From an uncultured delta proteobacterium (GTDB taxonomy: Bacteria > Desulfobacterota > Binatia > UBA9968), in assembly GCA_963737905.1 (NCBI GenBank), contig CAVTUQ010000025.1, forward strand, positions 298,653-362,652: a stretch of DNA of 64,000 nucleotides, given 5' to 3'. The notes beneath the pieces were generated by a model. It did no database searches, had not been told where the DNA came from, and was given only the letters and a program-made list of their open reading frames with translations. The translations under genes and the position numbers were made by a program. Below are positions 3,100-51,853 of the stretch, piece by piece; position 1 is the first letter of the stretch, and the number at the start of each line of letters is the position of its first letter.

Positions 3100-5871
3100 T
3101 TATCCTCTACTCGCGTGCGATGCTTCTCGTCCCCCGGCGGTGGTCGCGATACGCCTTATCACGGGGATTTTCTCGTACGCTTCGACCACGTCTCCCTGCT
3201 TGATATCCTGGAAGCCTTCGATGGCAAGACCACATTCGTAACCGGCAGCTACCTCACGGACGTCGTCTTTGAAACGTTTGAGGCTGCCTAGCTTGCCTTC
3301 GTGTACGACCACCTGATCTCTCAGCAACCGTACCAAACTTCCGCGCTGGACTTTTCCTTCAGCGACATAGCAACCGGCAACCGTACCCGCGCCGGAGATA
3401 TTGAAGACCTGGCGAACTTCAACCCGACCCATAATTTGCTCGCGGTAGGTCGGTTCCAACAGTCCTTCCATTGCTGCCCTCACATCGGCTACCGCTTCAT
3501 AGATGATCGTGTACAAACGAACGTCCACCCCTTCTTTAGCCGCCAGCGAAGCTCCTTTGGCTTCCGGCCGAACATTGAAGCCAATCACAATGGCATTGGA
3601 GGCTGCCGCCAGCAAGATATCACTCTCGGTAATGCCGCCAACGGACCCGTGGATCACCCGGAACTTGACTTCGTCGCTGGAGAGCCGACCTAGAGCTTCC
3701 GTTAAAGCTTCTACGGAGCCCTGGACATCCGCTTTGAGGACGACCCGGAGTTCCCTCACATCGCCCGCTTTGATCTGATCGTAAAGTTCTTCCAGCGAAA
3801 CCTTGCTCGACTTAACCAGCTCGGTCTCTCTTTGCTTGCTGTGGCGATACTCCGCAACCTGCCGCGCCTTTGCCTCGTCGGCAACCGCGACGAAAGAATC
3901 TCCAGCCTGCGGAACACCCTGCAGGCCAAGAATTTCCACGGGGAAAGAAGGCGAAGCCGCATCTACTTTACGTCCCCGATCATCGACCATCGCCCGCACC
4001 TTGCCATAGAATACACCGCAGACAAAGGCATCACCGACGTGCAAGGTCCCCTCCTGCACGAGCACGGTTGCCACCGGTCCGCGTCCACGATCGAGTTTGG
4101 CTTCAACAATCGTCCCGCGGGCAAGTTTGTTTGGATTGGCCTTGAGCTCGAGTATGTCCGCCTGTAACAGAAGCATTTCGAGGAGATGAGGAATACCCTC
4201 TTGGGTCTTCGCCGATACCGGCGCAAAAACCGTATCCCCCCCCCAGTCCTCCGATACGAGCCCGTATTCCGAAAGCCCCCTTTTCACCCGCTCAAGGTTG
4301 GCGTCTGGCCTGTCGATTTTGTTGATCGCGACGATGATGGGCACTTCAGCGGCGCGCGCATGGTTGATCGCCTCCACAGTCTGCGGCATGACACCGTCGT
4401 CCGCCGCCACCACCAGCACGACGATATCCGTCACCTGCGCACCGCGCGCCCGCATGGCGGTGAACGCTTCATGACCGGGAGTATCCAAGAAAGTTACACT
4501 GCGGCCGTCAACTTGCACATGATACGCGCCGATATGTTGGGTAATGCCGCCGTGCTCTTGATCCGTCACATGGGTGCTGCGAATAGCGTCGAGCAACGAG
4601 GTCTTTCCGTGGTCGACGTGGCCCATAATGGTGACCACCGGCGACCGCGGCATCAGTGCCGTCTCCTGTTCTTCCACCTGGTGCTCGACTTCAAGAGCGC
4701 TGTCGGCGTCGAATGCGACATTCTCTACTTGATGGTCGAACTCCGAAGCAATCAGGGTCGCGGTATCCGCATCCAAAACCTGATTAATCGTCGCCATCAT
4801 CCCGAGCCCCATTAATTTCTTAATGACCTCCCCGGCCTTGACACCCATGTCACGCGCCAAGTCACCGACGGTAATGACTTCGGAGATTTTAATAATGCGC
4901 TTGCTGGCCCTGGGAACAGTAATCTCGGTTTTTCTTTGCTCTTTTCCGGGGAGCGCTCTCTTCTTTCTCGGGATACGCCCGGAGCGAAGCTCTTTTTCTC
5001 GAAACTCCAAGACATCTTGTTTCTTGACGACGCGCTTCTTGTGGCGGCCGGCCTTGGCTGGTTTCTCCCCTTCGGCTCCTTCTGGCTTGGGGGCCTCGCC
5101 TTCGCGAGCGGGTTTGAGAGTGTCTGCCGCCGGCCTCTGAGTTACCACCGGTGCGCCGGGTACCGGACGCCGAGCTACGGGTGTCGGCGCCGGCTCGACT
5201 CTCGTTGTTCGCCTAAGATCGATACGGCCCAGGATCCGCGCACCGCGGGGTGCTTCTTCTTGAACGGGCGCTGGTTTTTCTTCTGCGCCCGGCTTGGGAG
5301 CGGGTTCTTCTGGCACCCCCTGCACCGAAGGCGCCGCTTCTGCTGTCACTTCCTCAGTACCAAGAGGTTCTTCCTGAAAAACCGCATCCATCTCACCCAC
5401 CAGGTGATCTGGCATTTCAATTTCAGGCGTAGATTGATCCGGCAATTCCTCGGCAGGTGCAATCGGTGCTGCCGTTTCTTCGATGGCCGGGGCGGGTGTT
5501 TTCTCGAGGCCGGGCTCGACTCCCGTCTCGGGTCTCTCAACCACCTGCGCAGCCACCTCGACCCGGCTGGTGCGGCGGCGAATGACATTGGCTCGAACCC
5601 TTCGCTCCACCACCGTTTCCCGAGCCTGAATTTCTCCGAGGTTCTCATCCTCTGCGGTCACGACACGGTCCGCGACGACTTTTTCTTCGCCAACGTGGAC
5701 CTGAGGCTTCTCTTGTCCTGCTAACACCGCCCTGAGACGAGTTACTTCGTCATCTTCCAGGGAACTCTGAGCCTTACGGCCGCGAATTCCCAGTTTGTCA
5801 AGCTGGGCAATGAGATCCTTGGTCTCGATTCCAAGTTCCTTAGCCAATAAATGGACTCTCGTTTTTCCCAT
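3100..5871 (-). CDS. infB: Translation initiation factor IF-2
   Basis: [20 protein letters not shown] and NKID GTPase motifs. Confidence 0.99.
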
Positions 5872-43327: not shown

Positions 43328-43491
43328 CCGTTCCTACACCCAACTGATCAAAGCTACCTTTCAACCTCATTTTCTACCTTGTCACTCCTGGTATCGCATG
43401 GACCGCTGCCGCCACAAGGCACTCCTACTCAAGTTTGTGCGCGAGCGACGCCCCGGCGCCGGATCGAGCGCTATTCACCGCGCGGTTGACT

Positions 43492-43637
43492 TTTGCGACT
43501 CATCTCCTCGAAGACGGCTACGACATCCGAACCGTCCAGGAATTATTAGGGCATAAAGACGTTTCGACTACGATTTTTACACTCATGTGTTAAATCGTGG
43601 CGGCAAGGGTGTTTTCAGTCCCGCTGATCGGCTTTAA
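43492..43637 (+). pseudogene. intI: C-terminal remnant of integron integrase
   Basis: [27 protein letters not shown]-/[19 protein letters not shown], a typical IntI C-terminus with one indel. Confidence 0.88.
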
Positions 43638-43791
43638 TAACACCCTTGTTGCATGTGAGGGCGGTTCTTTCTTTGAGAAAGGTCATGAAAAAAAAGTCTA
43701 TGGGAGAGGATTTGGTAACCGCTGCCGTGCTACACCGCGGGCTGATATCTGGATACCCCGCCCCCGGCGCAGCGTTTGTCGGGAAAAGAGA

Positions 43792-43877: not shown

Positions 43878-43901
43878 CGGCAGTTCACTTAATAGTTGAA
43901 C
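43878..43901 (+). other. Candidate attI core / left junction of the first cassette
   Basis: CGGCAGTTCACTTAATA G|TTGAAC fits GTTRRRY with an upstream GTT box. Confidence 0.55.
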
Positions 43902-44037
43902 TAAACCGCTTCGCGGTGGCACTGGTTATGTAAGGTCGGTGCCACTCACTCTACCTTTGTTTTTCATTGATCTTGCTAGCTGATTGTTTTTCTCTGAACT
44001 AGCGTAGTTCCCAAAATTAATCCAAGGAGGATTTTTT

Positions 44038-44886
44038 ATGGGAGCACTACGAGAAAAGATGGTTGGGGAGATGAAACTGCGCAACTTCGCGTCCAGGACA
44101 CAGAAGTCTTACCTTGCCGTGATGGTGGGGTTGGCCAAGCACTATCGTCAGTTTCCGGATCAACTGACGCAGGAGCAGATCCGCACCTACCTGTTGCATT
44201 TGCAGGAGCGGGGGCTGTCGAGCAGTTCGCAGAACGTGGCCATCTCGGGGCTACGGTTTTTCTATCAGCAGGTTTTGGGGTGGACCCAGGAGCAGATATT
44301 CTTGCCACCGAGAAAACGCACCTGGCGATTGCCGGAGGTGTTAAGTCCCAGGGAAGTGGAGCGATTGCTAGCTGCCGCAGTCAAGCTTCGCGATCGCTGT
44401 TTGCTAATGACGGCCTACTCGGCAGGGCTTCGGGTCAGCGAGCTGGTCCACCTCAAACTGAGCGATATCCATACCGAGCGGATGATGATCCGCGTAGAAC
44501 AGGGCAAAGGGAAAAAAGACCGTTACACCATTCTCTCCCAACGGCTGCTCGGTGAGCTGAAGAGATACAAGCAGACTTATCAACCGGTTTCGTGGGTCTT
44601 CTTTGGCAAGAACAGAAATTGCCCTTTGGATATCACTGCAGTCCAGAAAGTCTACAATCGAGCCAAGCAGAAAAGTGGCGTTGAAAAAGGCAAGGGCATT
44701 CATACATTGCGCCATTGTTTCGCAACCCATCTTCTTGAGGGCGGAGTGGACCTGTGCACGATCAAGACGCTGTTGGGGCATAACTCGCTTCAGAGTACCC
44801 AGCGCTACCTGCAGATTCGCCAGCCCAAGTTGAGCTCGACCACGAGTCCGTTAGACTTGCTCGATCTGCGTGACCCCCCGCTTTAG
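44038..44886 (+). CDS. Site-specific tyrosine recombinase (no IntI I2 insertion)
   Basis: SAM-like N-terminus; GLRVSE, GKGKKDR, HTLRH, LLGH, TQRY. Confidence 0.95.
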   Translation: MGALREKMVGEMKLRNFASRTQKSYLAVMVGLAKHYRQFPDQLTQEQIRTYLLHLQERGLSSSSQNVAISGLRFFYQQVLGWTQEQIFLPPRKRTWRLPEVLSPREVERLLAAAVKLRDRCLLMTAYSAGLRVSELVHLKLSDIHTERMMIRVEQGKGKKDRYTILSQRLLGELKRYKQTYQPVSWVFFGKNRNCPLDITAVQKVYNRAKQKSGVEKGKGIHTLRHCFATHLLEGGVDLCTIKTLLGHNSLQSTQRYLQIRQPKLSSTTSPLDLLDLRDPPL

Positions 44887-44898
44887 TCGGGCACGATC

Positions 44899-46074
44899 AT
44901 GCTGCTTGCCCGTCCAGGGCTGGTGGCAGGAGAGAGAAGCGGGGGCCCCGAACTGGCCGATATCTTTCGTAGTCACGGGCAGAGCTACCAACGAACGCAT
45001 CGCCTATCGGCCTCTGAGCAAAAAGTGATGCGGGCCGTTGAGGTCTGTCGCACGGCTGAATTGGGAGGGCATCTCAAGCAGTGCGACACTTGCGGCTTTG
45101 AGCACCCGACTTATAACTCCTGCCGTAACCGCCACTGTCCTAAATGCCAGTCGCTGGCCAAAGCCAAGTGGTTGGAGAAGCAGACCTCTGAGCTTTTGCC
45201 GGTGGGCTATTTTCATCTGGTCTTTACCTTGCCGCACCTTCTCAACGGCTTGATCCTGGCCAACAAAAAGATCCTGCTAAGCCTGCTGTTTAAAGCCGTC
45301 AGTGAAACGTTACTAGAGTTTGGCCAGACACGTCTTAAGGGAACCCTCGGAATCATCGCCGTGCTACACACCTGGGACCAAACGCTCAAGGATCATTTTC
45401 ATCTGCACTGTTTGGTTCCCGCCGGCGCTCTGTCTTCGAATCACAGCCGTTGGATTGGAGCACGGCCAAACTTTCTGTTTCCTGTCACCGCTCTGAGCCA
45501 GGTGTTTCAGGGAAAGTTCCTGGCTCTCTTACAACAGGCCTGTGATAAAGGAAAAATCCCGCCGGCCAACAACGAGATCAAAGCATCACGGCAAAAGAGC
45601 TGGGTGGTCTACGCCAAAAAGCCGTTCGGTTCTCCACAGACCGTGCTCGATTACCTCGGCCGCTATACCCACCGCGTGGCGCTGTCCAACGAGCGCATCC
45701 TTTCGGTCCAAAACGGTCAGGTCACCCTGAGTTATAGAGATCGAAAGGATGGCAACAGAAAAATGACCATCCCCCTTGACGCCCAGGAGTTCATCCGCCG
45801 CTTCCTGCTTCACGTCTTGCCCGATGGCTTCATGCGCATCCGTCACTTCGGGTTTTTAGCCAACCGCTCTAAAAAACAGGCCTTGGCTCAGTGTCGCAGA
45901 CTGCTAAAAATTGAGGCCGCGTTGCCGGAAACCCCGAAGGAGTCAGCTAAAGATTTGTTGCTGAGAATCACCGGCATCGATCTGAGTCGCTGCCCTTCCT
46001 GCCATCGGGGAACCATGATCGTCGTCGCTGAGCTGCCGCCGATTTCAAGCCCGTCTCAATGGGATTCTTCATGA
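44899..46074 (+). CDS. IS91-family (Y2 HUH) transposase with Zn-binding domain
   Basis: CDTC...SCRNRHCPKC; LHTW...HFHLH; YLGRY; RIRHFGFL. Confidence 0.95.
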   Translation: MLLARPGLVAGERSGGPELADIFRSHGQSYQRTHRLSASEQKVMRAVEVCRTAELGGHLKQCDTCGFEHPTYNSCRNRHCPKCQSLAKAKWLEKQTSELLPVGYFHLVFTLPHLLNGLILANKKILLSLLFKAVSETLLEFGQTRLKGTLGIIAVLHTWDQTLKDHFHLHCLVPAGALSSNHSRWIGARPNFLFPVTALSQVFQGKFLALLQQACDKGKIPPANNEIKASRQKSWVVYAKKPFGSPQTVLDYLGRYTHRVALSNERILSVQNGQVTLSYRDRKDGNRKMTIPLDAQEFIRRFLLHVLPDGFMRIRHFGFLANRSKKQALAQCRRLLKIEAALPETPKESAKDLLLRITGIDLSRCPSCHRGTMIVVAELPPISSPSQWDSS

Positions 46075-46318
46075 GAAAAACTCAAATGCTGATAAGCCCT
46101 TTTTACTGTTTACAGGCCGTCGTCGCACAGGTGTGTCTGCTGATACCCAAAAGTTGCTCCCATGCCCCATTGCACCGTAGCCATCAAACAAAATCTACCG
46201 ACCTCGATCTCAACCTTCTCCTGCTTCTCGATCTATCGCTCACACAGCACCACCCTCGGCACCGCTGTGCCACTTTACAATCCGCATAGCCGCAACCTCC
46301 GTGCGGCTCCGCGCTTTA

Positions 46319-46411
46319 GTCCAACACGTTTTATCCCCCCGTGGCGCTTGCCAGAATATTTTGGAGCTTGATTGCCTCCAGGCTTTGGGGATAAAACGCT
46401 ATACGTTAGGC
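46319..46411 (+). other. Atypical attC-like site at the element right end
   Basis: GTCCAAC a CGTTTTATCCCC...GGGGATAAAACG ctatac GTTAGGC. Confidence 0.75.
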
Positions 46412-47011: not shown

Positions 47012-49013
47012 AGGAACGCCGGTTACCCGGCGCCCCCCGTACAGACCCCGGCGTGCAGTTTTTCCGCACCGGGTTCCTCGGTCCTACTCGCTTCCGCGCA
47101 AGACCTAGCCATCAAGCAAACACTCTCCGTCGCGGCATCTCGGTGATACACGGCTTGGCGATAGAGACACATTTAAGCACCCGCTCAAACTGCTCCCATG
47201 TGTAGCTTCGCCGCCAACTCCGACGGTTGAGCCACTTGAAGGCGCAGTTTATCGCCCACGCATAGAAGCGGTACAGCGAGTGCGAGTTGCCTCGCACACC
47301 ATAGTAATTGTAATGACCGCGTAACCGAGCGTTTAACCGCTCGAAAAATTCGCCTCCAGGCAAGTGTCGGTTGAGCTTGATCCATTCCTTGATCCTACGG
47401 CATGCAGCCTGCAATCTCTTGCGGGCCGTACGCCGCTTTACCCTCGGCACGCCTTGCCGATCGAGCTTCCACTGAAACTCGAAGCCCAGAAAGGCAAAAC
47501 GATGCTTCAGTCTCGGATGAAATCGACTGAAACGCAGGATGCGTGTCTTCTCCGAAGCCACCTCTAAGTTGAACTTCGCCAACCGCTTCGGTAGCACCCG
47601 ATAAAACCGCTCTGCGTCTTCCCGATAGCGGAATGCCCACACCGCATCATCAGCATAGCGACACATGATCGCCTCTCCCCGGCTCCGTGGCTTAACGACT
47701 TTCTCAAACCACAAGTCCAATGCGTAATGTAAGTACACATTGGCGAGCACCGGGGAAACAATCCCGCCTTGAGGAGTGCCGGTATCTGGATGAATGACCT
47801 CTCCATCTGTCTCCAAAATGCCAGCCTTCAGCCATTTCCGAATCAGGTCAAGAAAGGCCTGGTCGTCGATGCGCAGACTCAGCATCTTCAGCAGCCAGTC
47901 ATGGTCCATATGATCGAAAAAGCCTTTGACATCAGCCTCAACCACATACCCATAGACTCCGTATTGCAGGTCGAAGGTGAGGTCTCTCACCCCATCCAAC
48001 GCACTGCGCTCGGGCCGATAGCTATAACTGCAACTTAGGAACTCCTGCTCGTAAATCGCACTCAAAAGCTTCGCACAGGCCAACTGAACCAGCTTGTCTT
48101 CCAACGCCGCTATCCCTAACGGCCTCTCTTTACCATCCTCCTTCGCAATGTATCTTCGCCTCACCAACTTCGCCCGATAGCGCTTCGCTCTCAGTCGCTC
48201 TACCAGCGCCTCGATGTTAGCCTTGAGATTTCTCTCATAAGCCGCCACCGTGACCCCGTCCACACCCGCCGCGCATTCTGTTCAACTGCGGCCAGCACCA
48301 CATCACGTACTCAACGTTCAAGTACCGGTAAAGATCCTGAAATCGGTGGCACTTGTTGGCTTTCGCCTTGTTTGCTATTTCCCGCAGGAAGGTTGGCTCG
48401 TGTTCTCCCGGCCCAACTCTGTCCGGCACGAGTTGCCTATGCAGGTTTCGTAGTTCCGTCAGGTCCTTCCCCATGTACGTGGCTTTCCCACGCTCCGAGT
48501 ACTATGCCTGATAAGACCCCCTAAGCTTGCGGCGGGCTTTCCCTCTTACAGTACTTCTCCGCCTACCTCGCGGCGTTCCACTCGGGCGCTCTAGGTTCCA
48601 GCATAGCTCCGTCTCCGGGTTTCCCCTTGTGTGCCTCATTAGCTGTATACCCTACTCCCTAGTTTTGCTCCGCTTGGAACCCATGGGGCCTCCCGGGTTC
48701 TCCTAGCGTATCTCTCCCTGCATGCCATGGCCTGTGGACTCCGGCGGACCTCCACATCCTCGCCCTATCGGATGCTTCGTGTTGGCTTCGTGCACGTTAA
48801 AACACTCGCCGTCCGCAACAACCCTATCTCGAAGCTGTACCAGCTCTTCAGGACGCGCGGTCGTCCCTACGGCCTACAGGATTCTCTGTCTACGCTTCGC
48901 CTGTCTCGTTCGCCTTTCGGCTCCTCCACAGACGCAAGACTCGATACGGGCGGGTGGCTCACCCTTACCCGACGGGGACTCTCACCCCGTAAGATACGCC
49001 GAGCTTTGGCGGA
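47012..49013 (-). mobile_element. Group II intron inserted in the attC R'' box (GCC|TAAC)
   Basis: DV/DVI GAACCCGGTGCGGAAAAACTGCACGCCGGGGTC..GGGGGGCGCCGGGTAACCGGCGTTCC; 5' region with GGGGTGAGAGTCCCC; RT ORF. Confidence 0.9.
47112..48474 (-). CDS. ltrA: Group II intron reverse transcriptase/maturase, no En domain, frameshift near 48270, start uncertain
   Basis: KEDGKERPLGI, GTPQGG..SP.LAN.YLH, RYADD, YNYYG. Confidence 0.9.
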
Positions 49014-49973: not shown

Positions 49974-50072
49974 CCCTAACAAGCCACTGGAGCAGACGGC
50001 CCACCCGACAGATTGTGTGGGTCTACACTCATCTCGTCGTGAGTGGGCCGCTGCTCACCGGCGGCGTTATGC
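49974..50072 (+). other. attC site
   Basis: CCCTAAC aagcc actgGAGCAG.CGGCCCAC...GTGGGCCG CTGCTC accggcggc GTTATGC. Confidence 0.88.
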
Positions 50073-50093: not shown

Positions 50094-50362
50094 ATGCCAG
50101 AGGTTTCTAGGTTCTTCGGAATTATCATTCGCATGTTCGTTGAGGCCGGAGGACAGCACATATGCCTCACTTCCACGCGTACTATCAGGATCATGTGGGA
50201 ATCTACGATATCGGCAGGGTCGAGCGTTTGGCCGGCTCCCTTCCGAGACGTCAGGAACGCCTTGTGCTAGCGTGGGCAGAGCTTCATCAGGAAGAGTTAC
50301 TGTCGAATTGGCAGACGTTGCAACAGGGCCGTCCGCCCATTAAGATTGATCCATTAAAGTGA
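50094..50362 (+). pseudogene. DUF4160 (HicA-like) toxin, frameshift near 50160
   Basis: MPEVSRFFGIIIRMF...H-/-PHFHAYY...LAWAELHQEELL.NW. Confidence 0.8.
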
Positions 50363-50373
50363 GAGGTCCGCCT

Positions 50374-50691
50374 ATGGCTCATGAGATTTATCGGGTTTCC
50401 TCGTTTCAGAAGGTAGCGCCATTCACTCTGCGCGTACAGTTTGACGACGGTACGTCCCAAATCATCGATTTCGGTCCTGTCCTGAAAGGGGAACTGTACG
50501 GTCCTCTGCAAGAGCTAACGCTTTTTGATCAGGTCCGGATCGATCCAGAGGTCCACACGCTTGTTTGGCCAAACGGTGCAGATTTTGACCCAGCAATTCT
50601 TCATAACTGGCCCGAGTCAGGACCGGCACTCAAAGCTCTAGCGGAGCAGTGGGTCTCCGCAAAGCACGGCATGACCGATTCCGCCACATAA
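50374..50691 (+). CDS. DUF2442 antitoxin
   Basis: LRVQFDDG...WPNGADFDP; stop in ACATAAC. Confidence 0.85.
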   Translation: MAHEIYRVSSFQKVAPFTLRVQFDDGTSQIIDFGPVLKGELYGPLQELTLFDQVRIDPEVHTLVWPNGADFDPAILHNWPESGPALKALAEQWVSAKHGMTDSAT

Positions 50692-51450
50692 CCAATAAGG
50701 ATTGAGACGACTTCCGAGTCGTTTCAATCCTTAGTTCAAGAAGCCCGTGGTGAGGCAACGATCAATATAAAGGGAAATGGTTGTGAGTGTGGTTTGCGCC
50801 GAAGGAAGTGAAGGTCAGATTGGCGGTATGAATCGGCGCGCTGTGAAGTTGCAGCGGTAGAGTTTACTTAACTTTTGTTTTTTTCTCGCCAGTCTCTCCG
50901 CAAAAGAGAGTATCAGAACAAGGTTGGTGGCAAACCTCGGCGCATCCCCATGAGCTTTCATGTAGCGGAGGAGAAACAGAGGGAGATGAGTATGGTGTTG
51001 AAGAGTTTTTTTAACCTGATCGACGCAGAATTTTGAGAGGCGGCAGCAGCGAGCGCAATTTGAGTAGCCCACCGCAGGTTGGGCAGGTAGCGCCATGAGG
51101 AGGATCGACCTCGGGCAGAGGCAGATCGAGAGCGAAACCGTAGCTTAATTCGATCAGGGCGCGAATCCGATCGAGTGCAATCTTGCAGTTGGGATTCATA
51201 AAGCCGTAGTAGCGGATCTTCATGAAACCAGTGGGCAGCACATGCTGCAAGAAACGGCGGATGAACTCCATGACATCAAGAGCCAAGATTCTGGAGCGCT
51301 GGCTGTGAGGCTTGCGATAGCGAACCAGCACGGTGCGGTCTTGGACGCCGAGGATGCGCGAGTTGGAGATCGCGACTTTGAAGACGTAGGGAGCGAGATA
51401 CTTAAGACAAGCTTCACTGGAAGAGACCGCTTGGCAGTTGACGTTCCAGG
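50690..51450 (-). mobile_element. Remnant of a second IS91-like element (3' part of transposase and right end)
   Basis: WNVNCQ...LKYLAPYVFKVAISNSRI...EFIRRFLQHVLP.GF.KIRYYGF, stop at 51011; end CTTGAAC-stem-loop-GTTATGT on the minus strand. Confidence 0.85.
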
Positions 51451-51529
51451 CGAATTGATTCGCCTCATTTCGGCCCGCAAGGCGGACCGGTCAGAGCGGG
51501 CCCAATACAGCAGACGGTGGAGACAATGA
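51449..51529 (+). pseudogene. C-terminal remnant of BrnT toxin
   Basis: GELIRLISARKADRSERAQY. Confidence 0.8.
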
Positions 51530-51744
51530 GAAAACATTACGACTTTTCCCAGGCCAAACCGAATCCCTACGCCAAACGGCTGAAGAAGGAAGTTACGCTT
51601 CGGCTTGATGAGCGGACGGTTAACTATTTCGAGGAACTGTCTGAAGAGACGGGGATTCCCTCCCGAACGCTTATTAACCTGTATTTGCGTGAATGCGCCG
51701 CAAGTCGGAAGCGGCTGGCTCTTCAATGGAAACCTGCGGCTTAA
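51526..51744 (+). CDS. BrnA-like antitoxin
   Basis: MRKHYDFSQAKPNPYAKRLKKEVTLRLD...TLINLYL. Confidence 0.88.
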   Translation: MRKHYDFSQAKPNPYAKRLKKEVTLRLDERTVNYFEELSEETGIPSRTLINLYLRECAASRKRLALQWKPAA

Positions 51745-51752
51745 ATGTCGCG

Positions 51753-51853
51753 GCCTAACAAACCCACTGCACCCGACCACGACCTTGCTACAGTTCTGAA
51801 TGAGGGCTCAAGGCCAGAGTCTGGCCGCGTCGGGTGAGCGGGTGCCGTTAGGC
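51753..51853 (+). other. attC site
   Basis: GCCTAAC...CACCCGAC...GTCGGGTG...GTTAGGC. Confidence 0.88.

Follow-up and report, generated by a model that had tools for sequence, protein, structure and literature searches.

An IS91-family remnant at the R'' box of an integron attC site, and the strong preference of its relatives for such sites

To our knowledge, two kinds of mobile element home to the attC sites of integron gene cassettes: the IS1111-attC insertion sequences (IS), which do so in one orientation, and the group IIC-attC introns. Here we analyse a stretch of DNA of 64,000 nucleotides from an uncultured delta proteobacterium (Desulfobacterota; Binatia; UBA9968; GenBank assembly GCA_963737905.1, contig CAVTUQ010000025.1, positions 298,653 to 362,652), hereafter the window, in which the 3' third of an IS91-family element (50693-51453, minus strand) directly adjoins the R'' box of a cassette attC. 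We consider it likely that this remnant of the oriIS side got there by single-strand insertion of the IS91 type, the folded attC acting as a mimic of the junction between the element's own oriIS and terIS. Relatives of the element show a strong preference for the R'' box of attC, which is not their sole target.

In the excerpts of PMC9229058 and PMC3001079 used here, the group IIC-attC introns are described as invading attC antisense to the cassettes, and the first of these sources also mentions the IS1111-attC group as attC-homing. For the IS91 family, the excerpted parts of a 2026 study (PMC13181058) describe insertion that leaves the target unduplicated; a tetranucleotide in the target, directly beside oriIS (CTTG for IS91, GTTC for IS801 and IS1294, with T always at position 2); a terIS with a palindrome beside the cleavage site, which is GTTC in three of four members; an oriIS with one or two subterminal palindromes; and insertion, in IS91, only by single-stranded circles of one strand. 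Excerpts from two further accounts place terIS at the promoter side of the transposase gene, with secondary-structure-forming sequences at both ends of the element (PMC13393415), and have IS91 elements insert 5' to the tetranucleotide (PMC10288648). The elements described below follow this canonical plan point for point.

Read on the minus strand, the window copy consists of the C-terminus of a Y2 transposase, the subterminal motif AACCATTTCCCTTTATA, the right inverted repeat GGGCTTCTTGAAC, a single t, a 15-base-pair hairpin and a 4-nucleotide spacer, followed by GTTATGT (Table 1). A preliminary description of the stretch, made by a model from its letters, had listed the transposase C-terminus, an 'ori-like' motif and then CTTGAAC-t-stem-loop-stem-attg-GTTATGT, and on re-reading the sequence all of these are where it placed them. 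It had also taken GTTATGT for the complement of the R'' box (ACATAAC) of a DUF4160/DUF2442 cassette, which we confirm. ACATAAC lies at the 3' end of the open reading frame (ORF) of that array cassette, and its complement matches the cassette's own 5' boundary, GTTATGC at 50062-50068, at six of seven positions; we read it as R'' because this is what is expected of that cassette's R''. The attC body itself is deleted. As described, the rest of the site is missing: homology to a full-length relative on contig C19 of the same genome stops at about 51453, and no remainder of the split attC is recognisable at the scar (51454-51516).

What is left of the transposase gene codes for the last 145 amino acids and retains the YxxxY motif (YLAPYVFK). 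This fragment is 40% identical to the complete transposase (44899-46074) of another element of the window, here called the first element. In an alignment of the family, H156, H158 and H160 and Y235 and Y239 are invariant; since the zinc-binding domain and the HUH histidines are absent from the fragment, the window copy cannot be active. It is dead and has no present function. A single deletion probably took away the 5' two thirds of the element together with the attC body and the beginning of the following cassette; a toxin gene was probably lost as well. The lone antitoxin-like ORF at 51517-51744 adjoins the truncation point.

A DNA search of the window's genome found, on contig C19, a copy that aligns to positions 1-764 of the 765-base query with 81% identity, through the hairpin and as far as GGTTATG, and on contig C7 a 60-nucleotide solo copy of the hairpin unit. 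The genome has three copies of the hairpin in total, two of them joined to an element, and all three share sequence to GGTTAKG and diverge immediately beyond. The C19 copy is a full 2.4-kb relative with the 5' end GTTCAAGTAAGCCGCTCCGCGGCAG, in which the gene for a tyrosine recombinase of 295 amino acids overlaps the start of that for a transposase of 363 amino acids. Its insertion has divided an attC precisely behind the AAC of R'', and the remaining attC lies at the element's 5' end (GCATAAC / element / CATTGGGTTGAGACGG...ACAACGTTAGAC). On the cassette strand the order is an msrB-like ORF, GCATAAC / the antisense element ending CTTGAAC / CATTG-GGTTGAGACGGTCGCGG-CAGA-CCGCGCCTCTCACCC-ACAAC-GTTAGAC, and a hydrolase ORF. 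About 1 kb away, after the hydrolase gene, is an intact paralogue of this attC (GTCTAAC-CATTG-GGTTGAGA...), whose sequence puts the insertion point exactly between the AAC of R'' and the spacer. In another copy, G019, the left flank likewise restores the split attC (GCCTAAC / element / ...GTTAGGC). In both cases the flanks rebuild one attC with nothing repeated beyond the GTT that the element brings at its own 5' end; insertion takes place directly 5' of GTT and without target duplication.

The two homologous attCs on C19 flank the hydrolase ORF (locus L014, 9270-9322 and 10272-10330), and the msrB stop codon lies in the first R'' of the cluster; no intI was found there within the 15 kb inspected. 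The solo unit on C7 (locus L015, 6932-6993) adjoins GCCTAAC in a cassette array, 3.5 kb downstream of a genuine intI (TIGR02249, 455.7 bits against a cut-off of 265). That intI (L015, 2385-3479) is intact and, instead of being divergent from its cassettes, shares their strand; the intI remnant of the window is arranged alike. Solo oriIS units, comprising inverted repeat and hairpin (60-107 nucleotides), were seen both on C7 and in genome G264 (L046, 1705-1805); they are not bounded at the repeat.

Beyond this genome, 42 of 401 genomes of the phylum (the window's own included) have a match at an E-value of 1e-40 or better. One complete genome carries a solo end and two 2511-bp copies that are 99.84% identical and thereby define both ends: the copies begin GTTCAAGGAAGCCGC... 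and finish ...GGGCTTCATGAAC-TC-long hairpin-TATGG, then GTTG, then unrelated flanks. A scan of public genome contigs gave at least 577 stretches encoding a relative, and the best 79 loci span Thermodesulfobacteriota, Nitrospirota, Anaerolineales, Omnitrophota, Rokubacteria, Chlorobiales, Spirochaetales and others. The 5' ends of relatives are nearly invariant, with a terIS (GTTCAAGTAAGCCGC-N3-GCGGCAG) made up of the cleavage tetranucleotide GTTC with a small palindrome after it. Their 3' ends read GGGCTTCTTGAAC, 1-4 nucleotides, GGATTGA..loop..TCAATCC, a spacer such as TTATTG (4-6 nucleotides) and GTT, and both ends are conserved in relatives from several phyla. Some 20-40 nucleotides before the inverted repeat is the motif AA.CA.T.CCCT.TA, the 'ori-like' sequence of the preliminary description, kept in at least 80% of 47 distinct family members. 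At one locus (L067, ~3852-3950) the 3' end (GTTGAAC) is directly followed by a second similar hairpin unit, so that two oriIS units stand in tandem.

An intact element of about 2.45-2.5 kb carries overlapping genes for an Xer/IntI-like tyrosine recombinase and a zinc-finger HUH Y2 transposase. The recombinase gene, which the preliminary description had suggested looking for, is found directly upstream of the transposase gene in six of seven distinct loci inspected (the seventh ends at a contig end) as well as on C19. The full-length transposase matches NCBIfam NF033538 (IS91 family transposase) with 361.6 bits against a cut-off of 125, together with Pfam Zn_Tnp_IS91 and Y2_Tnp; these two and Phage_integrase are the only domains found in the element proteins, with no DEDD transposase among them. 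The best NCBIfam models for the recombinase are XerA/integron-integrase, XerD and XerC, all below their curated cut-offs. Against TIGR02249 it scores 168.8 bits (cut-off 265), which does not make it an integron integrase, and since this model matches in two stretches, the recombinase appears to be without the IntI-specific insert. Copies on a Herpetosiphon plasmid and an Ensifer plasmid have the recombinase/transposase gene pair and the repeat-plus-hairpin plan in other sequences, the Ensifer end having no GTT after the hairpin; in a search of a plasmid collection, the relatives reached 41% identity at most.

The first element of the window, with its clade, has the same plan as the window copy in other sequences: its 5' end is GTTGAACTAAACCGC and its 3' end GCGCTTTAGTCCAAC, then A, a 12-bp stem, CTATAC and GTTAGGC (46405-46411). 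The preliminary description had noted this common end layout and proposed that it is a family-wide recombination site. The shared structure is borne out, but it is not a new kind of site: AAC is the end of the right repeat mirroring the GTTC of terIS, the stem is the oriIS palindrome and GTT is the target, as in the IS91-family plan set out in the excerpts of PMC13181058.

The hairpin is a conserved part of the element. In the window its folding energy is -15.2 kcal/mol (z -3.6), a value equalled by none of 200 shuffles. Among relatives it is kept with compensatory changes: for 14 pairs in 38 sequences, standard pairs fill 87.8% of cells, as against 25.7-50.1% with partners slid by 1-3 columns. 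The count was made on a non-structural MAFFT alignment with the structure set by hand, which undercounts the upper stem. Six pairs have changed on both sides, for example from GGATTGA/TCAATCC to GATAGAG/CTCTATC or GGTTTGA/TCAAACC, and the covariation score, 0.170, exceeds that of shuffles, 0.069, with 0 of 500 reaching it. RNAalifold, run on the MAFFT alignment, returns the 6-bp stem base only. Across lineages, the position that directly follows GGATTGA is repeatedly unpaired (A.C, A.A or G.G).

Two simpler explanations of the hairpin have to be weighed here. It could be the DUF4160/DUF2442 cassette's own attC (ACATAAC...GTTCAAG), in which case the transposase fragment would be the next cassette or would have inserted at G|TT of R'. 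The plus strand does read AAC-spacer-stem-loop-stem-GTT and scores as attC-like in our own scan. However, the hairpin is attached to the element in every family member that we examined, copies at non-attC sites among them; it co-varies with the element's lineage, only three copies are present in the genome, two of them attached to an element, and C19 and G019 have a complete host-type attC besides it. We find this explanation extremely improbable, and since the hairpin accompanies the element, also into non-attC sites, it was rejected as an arm of the attC. Alternatively, the hairpin might be nothing but the terminator of the transposase gene, adjacent to GTT by chance. A stable stem-loop downstream of a gene would suit this, but about 280 nucleotides separate it from the stop codon, and its distance to the end of the element is constant; it lacks a T tract, and across lineages it retains the GGATTGA/TCAATCC base of the stem as well as an internal mismatch whose position does not change. 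With no terminator-like site called in the region by our scan, and with the hairpin conserved at element ends, we rejected this as well; it is highly improbable.

The target was defined from 53 distinct 3' junctions, collected with a pattern in which +1 had to be G, +2 could only be T or A and +3 only T or C (loci L095 and L113 could not be parsed and were dropped): T is found at +2 in 50 and at +3 in 52, A at +4 in 36, G at +6 in 34 and C or T at +7 in 42. The exceptions, three GAT and one GTC, show that the TT belongs to the target and not to the element. Counted by hand, GTTRRRY fits 18 of the 53 junctions, where about three would be expected by chance given GTT, and GTTAGGC is found in 11. 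On the 5' side, 20 of 49 non-redundant flanks (plus GTT) fold as an AAC...GTT hairpin below the 5th percentile of controls, these being 252 GTT sites from the same loci and the attC threshold being our own and not that of IntegronFinder. Some flanks slightly above this threshold (L114, L064) are also attC-looking, and in attC-like folds bulged bases are on the 3' arm. Conserved bases are also seen in the 5' flanks of 52 insertions, with A at -8 in 43, T at -11 in 36 and T or G at -1 in 51. An A at -8 is likewise present at several sites without an attC-like fold.

The orientation is seen at the 18 attC-like loci, where 50 of 61 flanking ORFs of at least 70 amino acids are on the opposite strand to the element. 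The ORF that follows the element's 3' end frequently has its stop codon no more than a few tens of bases away, DUF2442 and msrB being two examples. Together these observations identify the element's sense strand as the attC bottom strand and place the insertion at R''. The preliminary description had held that this lineage inserts antisense at R''. As a preference this stands, with 20 of 49 sites passing a strict test; as the only target it does not, and the first element is oriented in the sense of the cassettes.

How might such a preference arise? By analogy with IS91, the Y2 transposase would make a single-stranded circle, in which CTTGAAC could pair with GTTCAAG below the hairpin. The resulting fold would resemble the bottom strand of an attC: an R-box-like duplex would be followed by an asymmetric internal loop and then by an L-box-like stem, and cleavage would fall where GTT begins. 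At R'', the bottom strand of a folded attC presents the same arrangement (stem, short spacer and a GTTRRRY paired in the R box) and might be taken as the joining site. This common geometry of circle junction and folded attC would explain the strand, the orientation and the exact position of insertion; in the window, the element is antisense to the cassettes and comes between the AAC of R'' and the remainder of the site.

Several points weigh against this account, probable as we think it is. The constraints built into the junction pattern and our choice of threshold, given above, are among them, and copies within a single genome are not independent events. The attC test is failed by 29 of the 49 sites, and in the multi-copy Nitrospirota genomes the targets are AT-rich and not attC-like; a folded attC is thus not required. 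The 3' end of the element itself lacks the conserved bases of the 5' flank, a difference not easily reconciled with simple mimicry. The model leaves these bases unexplained and gives no role to the conserved tyrosine recombinase. Finally, neither an empty site (msrB-attC join) nor a circle junction (3'-5' join) was found in the assembled contigs of public runs, in which rare forms are not visible; loose contig ends at element boundaries in these assemblies show other contexts only.

The recombinase is central to an alternative in which the elements move by site-specific recombination and not by HUH transposition. The attC-like junction of the circle (CTTGAAC-hairpin-GTTCAAG) would be recombined with a target attC by the element's own Xer/IntI-like enzyme or by the host IntI, with the attC top strand cleaved at RYYYAA|C of R'' to give an inverted insertion. 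In every relative checked, a recombinase gene that appears intact is still joined to that of the transposase, and the models that this enzyme matches best, named above, are those of XerA/integron-integrase, XerD and XerC. The junction would have exactly complementary 7-nucleotide boxes and asymmetric spacers; in situ, the hairpin unit (50690-50736) is among the best attC-like folds of the window in our own test; a G|TT crossover fits every junction as well as the IS91 model does; and the first element follows closely on an intI remnant and has the sense orientation, the placement expected of a cassette at attI. Yet the recombinase falls below every curated cut-off and appears to be without the IntI-specific insert, and many targets are not attC-like and are found in genomes in which the element has multiplied. 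The spacers of the targets have no identity to that of the element, and such identity is usually required in classical two-strand tyrosine recombination; the ends conform to the IS91 rules in full, and solo hairpin units are not bounded at G|TTCAAG. On this evidence we regard site-specific recombination as rather unlikely. Since the two models predict identical junctions, the position of the crossover cannot be read from the sequence alone.

Doubtful too, in our judgement, is the proposal that this IS91 subgroup is a hybrid of insertion sequence and gene cassette, in which evolution has turned the oriIS-terIS junction into a functional imitation of attC. Folded attC bottom strands would then serve as docking sites for the single-stranded circle, which either its own recombinase or the host IntI could handle as a cassette. 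Once inserted, the GAAC of terIS and the remaining attC hairpin would form a second ori-like site, and one-ended rolling-circle transposition from there could carry off neighbouring cassettes. If true, this would provide a route of cassette movement independent of IntI.

The window as a whole is a cassette array, in which Pfam identifies DUF4160/DUF2442 pairs and antitoxin-like ORFs on the plus strand. A strict scan for R boxes (at least six of seven positions complementary) finds two sites only and is too strict for mapping the array; the arm of the C19 attC, searched for in the window, gave one match, and the attCs of the array are heterogeneous. The first element begins about 250 nucleotides past the intI remnant and may sit in attI, in the sense orientation. 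An attI could not be demonstrated when the region after the intact intI of C7 was compared with that before the first element, as only the intI remnant aligns. The group II intron of the window is antisense to the cassettes, as attC-homing introns are.

Table 1. Positions of the IS91-family remnant and of neighbouring features in the window
Feature	Position	Strand	Remarks
Integron-integrase C-terminal remnant with frame break	43470-43640	+	~75% DNA identity to intact intI on C7
First element, complete, 2510 bp	43895-46404	+	Tyrosine recombinase gene 44038-44886, Y2 transposase gene 44899-46074
Group II intron	47112-48982	-	Rfam RF02005 at 48728-48982, 119.8 bits; reverse-transcriptase/maturase ORF 47112-48263
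Canonical attC before DUF4160	49978-50068	.	Ends GTTATGC (50062-50068), the 5' boundary of the DUF4160/DUF2442 cassette
DUF4160 and DUF2442 ORFs, cassette whose attC was hit	50162-50691	+	Pfam
DUF2442 ORF	50359-50691	+	TAA stop lies within ACATAAC
Target GTTATGT, bottom strand of R'' box ACATAAC	50686-50692	-	Overlaps DUF2442 stop codon
Terminal spacer ATTG, element's last bases	50693-50696	-	Homology of own-genome copies and relatives ends here or at next G
oriIS hairpin, whole	50697-50732	-	Fold z -3.6; compensatory changes among relatives
Hairpin stem, second arm GTCGTCTCAATCCTT	50697-50711	-	One A.C mismatch in 15-bp stem
Hairpin loop, 6 nucleotides	50712-50717	-	
Hairpin stem, first arm AAGGATTGAAACGAC	50718-50732	-	
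Single t between inverted repeat and stem	50733	-	
Right inverted repeat GGGCTTCTTGAAC	50734-50746	-	Mirrors 5' terminus GTTCAAGTAAGCC of full-length copies
Subterminal motif AACCATTTCCCTTTATA of oriIS region	50766-50782	-	Consensus kept among family members
Y2_Tnp fragment, 5'-truncated transposase gene	51011-51453	-	Pfam PF04986, E 6.7e-29, profile positions 92-178 of 183
Probable deletion scar, truncated element to lone BrnA/CopG-like ORF	51454-51516	.	Homology to C19 element stops at ~51453
Lone BrnA/CopG-like antitoxin ORF without toxin partner	51517-51744	+	Pfam CopG_antitoxin, E 2e-4, below cut-off
Neighbouring canonical attC	51753-51853	.	

Among known systems, IS801, IS1294 and IS91 come closest. 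Like them, the elements described here have an HUH Y2 transposase with an N-terminal zinc domain and a terIS with GTTC and a small palindrome; also alike, going by the excerpts of PMC13181058 and PMC13393415, are the oriIS palindrome downstream of the gene, the lack of target duplication and a GTTC/CTTG-type tetranucleotide at oriIS. They differ from IS91 in having a tyrosine recombinase gene where IS91 has orf121, and from the canonical family in a target relaxed to GTTN, with A preferred, and in the strong preference for the R'' box of attC. Some IS91-family entries in ISfinder, ISShvi3 among them, carry an integrase-like gene upstream of the transposase. Such ISShvi3-type elements share the recombinase and IS91 transposase gene pair; attC R'' as a target was found in no description of them, and plasmid relatives are at most 41% identical. 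The full texts searched contain no account of IS91-type elements homing to attC, only a remark on ISShvi3, in which 'attC' may well refer to the element's own hairpin. The architecture is that of ordinary IS91-family elements, and the preference for attC R'' is not described within the literature searched.

The element also has features in common with an integron cassette. The circle would have an imperfect hairpin between complementary AAC/GTT boxes, the linear element starts TT... and ends ...G, and the stem is attC-like in being imperfect, with a conserved internal mismatch and with spacers of 1-4 against 4-6 nucleotides. Unlike a cassette, the element is found at R'' and not at R', has mobility genes of its own and has boxes that fit RYYYAAC only partly: CTTGAAC does so at five of seven positions, and would be exactly complementary to GTTCAAG in the predicted circle. 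This resemblance matters for annotation, as the hairpin can be mistaken for an attC and such elements may be filed as 'cassettes'. Since IS91 and ISCR elements can move adjacent DNA by one-ended transposition, copies inside cassette arrays could also shuffle cassettes without an integrase.

IS200/IS605 elements use a Y1 enzyme of another fold family and a cut-and-paste mechanism known as 'peel and paste'. Common to them and the present elements, in part according to an excerpt of PMC10288648, are an HUH transposase, subterminal hairpins, orientation-specific insertion beside a short target and, as we propose for the elements described here, single-strand intermediates.

As to the elements known to home to attC, the group IIC-attC introns differ in being retrohoming retroelements with a ribozyme and a reverse transcriptase. 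The IS1111-attC group has a DEDD transposase of the IS110/IS1111 family and ends of another kind; no homology of this group to the element proteins was seen, none having been tested for. A third attC-homing kind, with a single-strand HUH transposase, would extend this list. If our account is correct, the folded attC would be a general landing pad for elements that work on single-stranded DNA. The elements would also offer a natural system in which to ask how an IS91-type transposase reads the hairpin beside its cleavage site, a question unsettled for IS91 and ISCR, and would suggest a job for the tyrosine recombinase carried by many members of the IS91 family.

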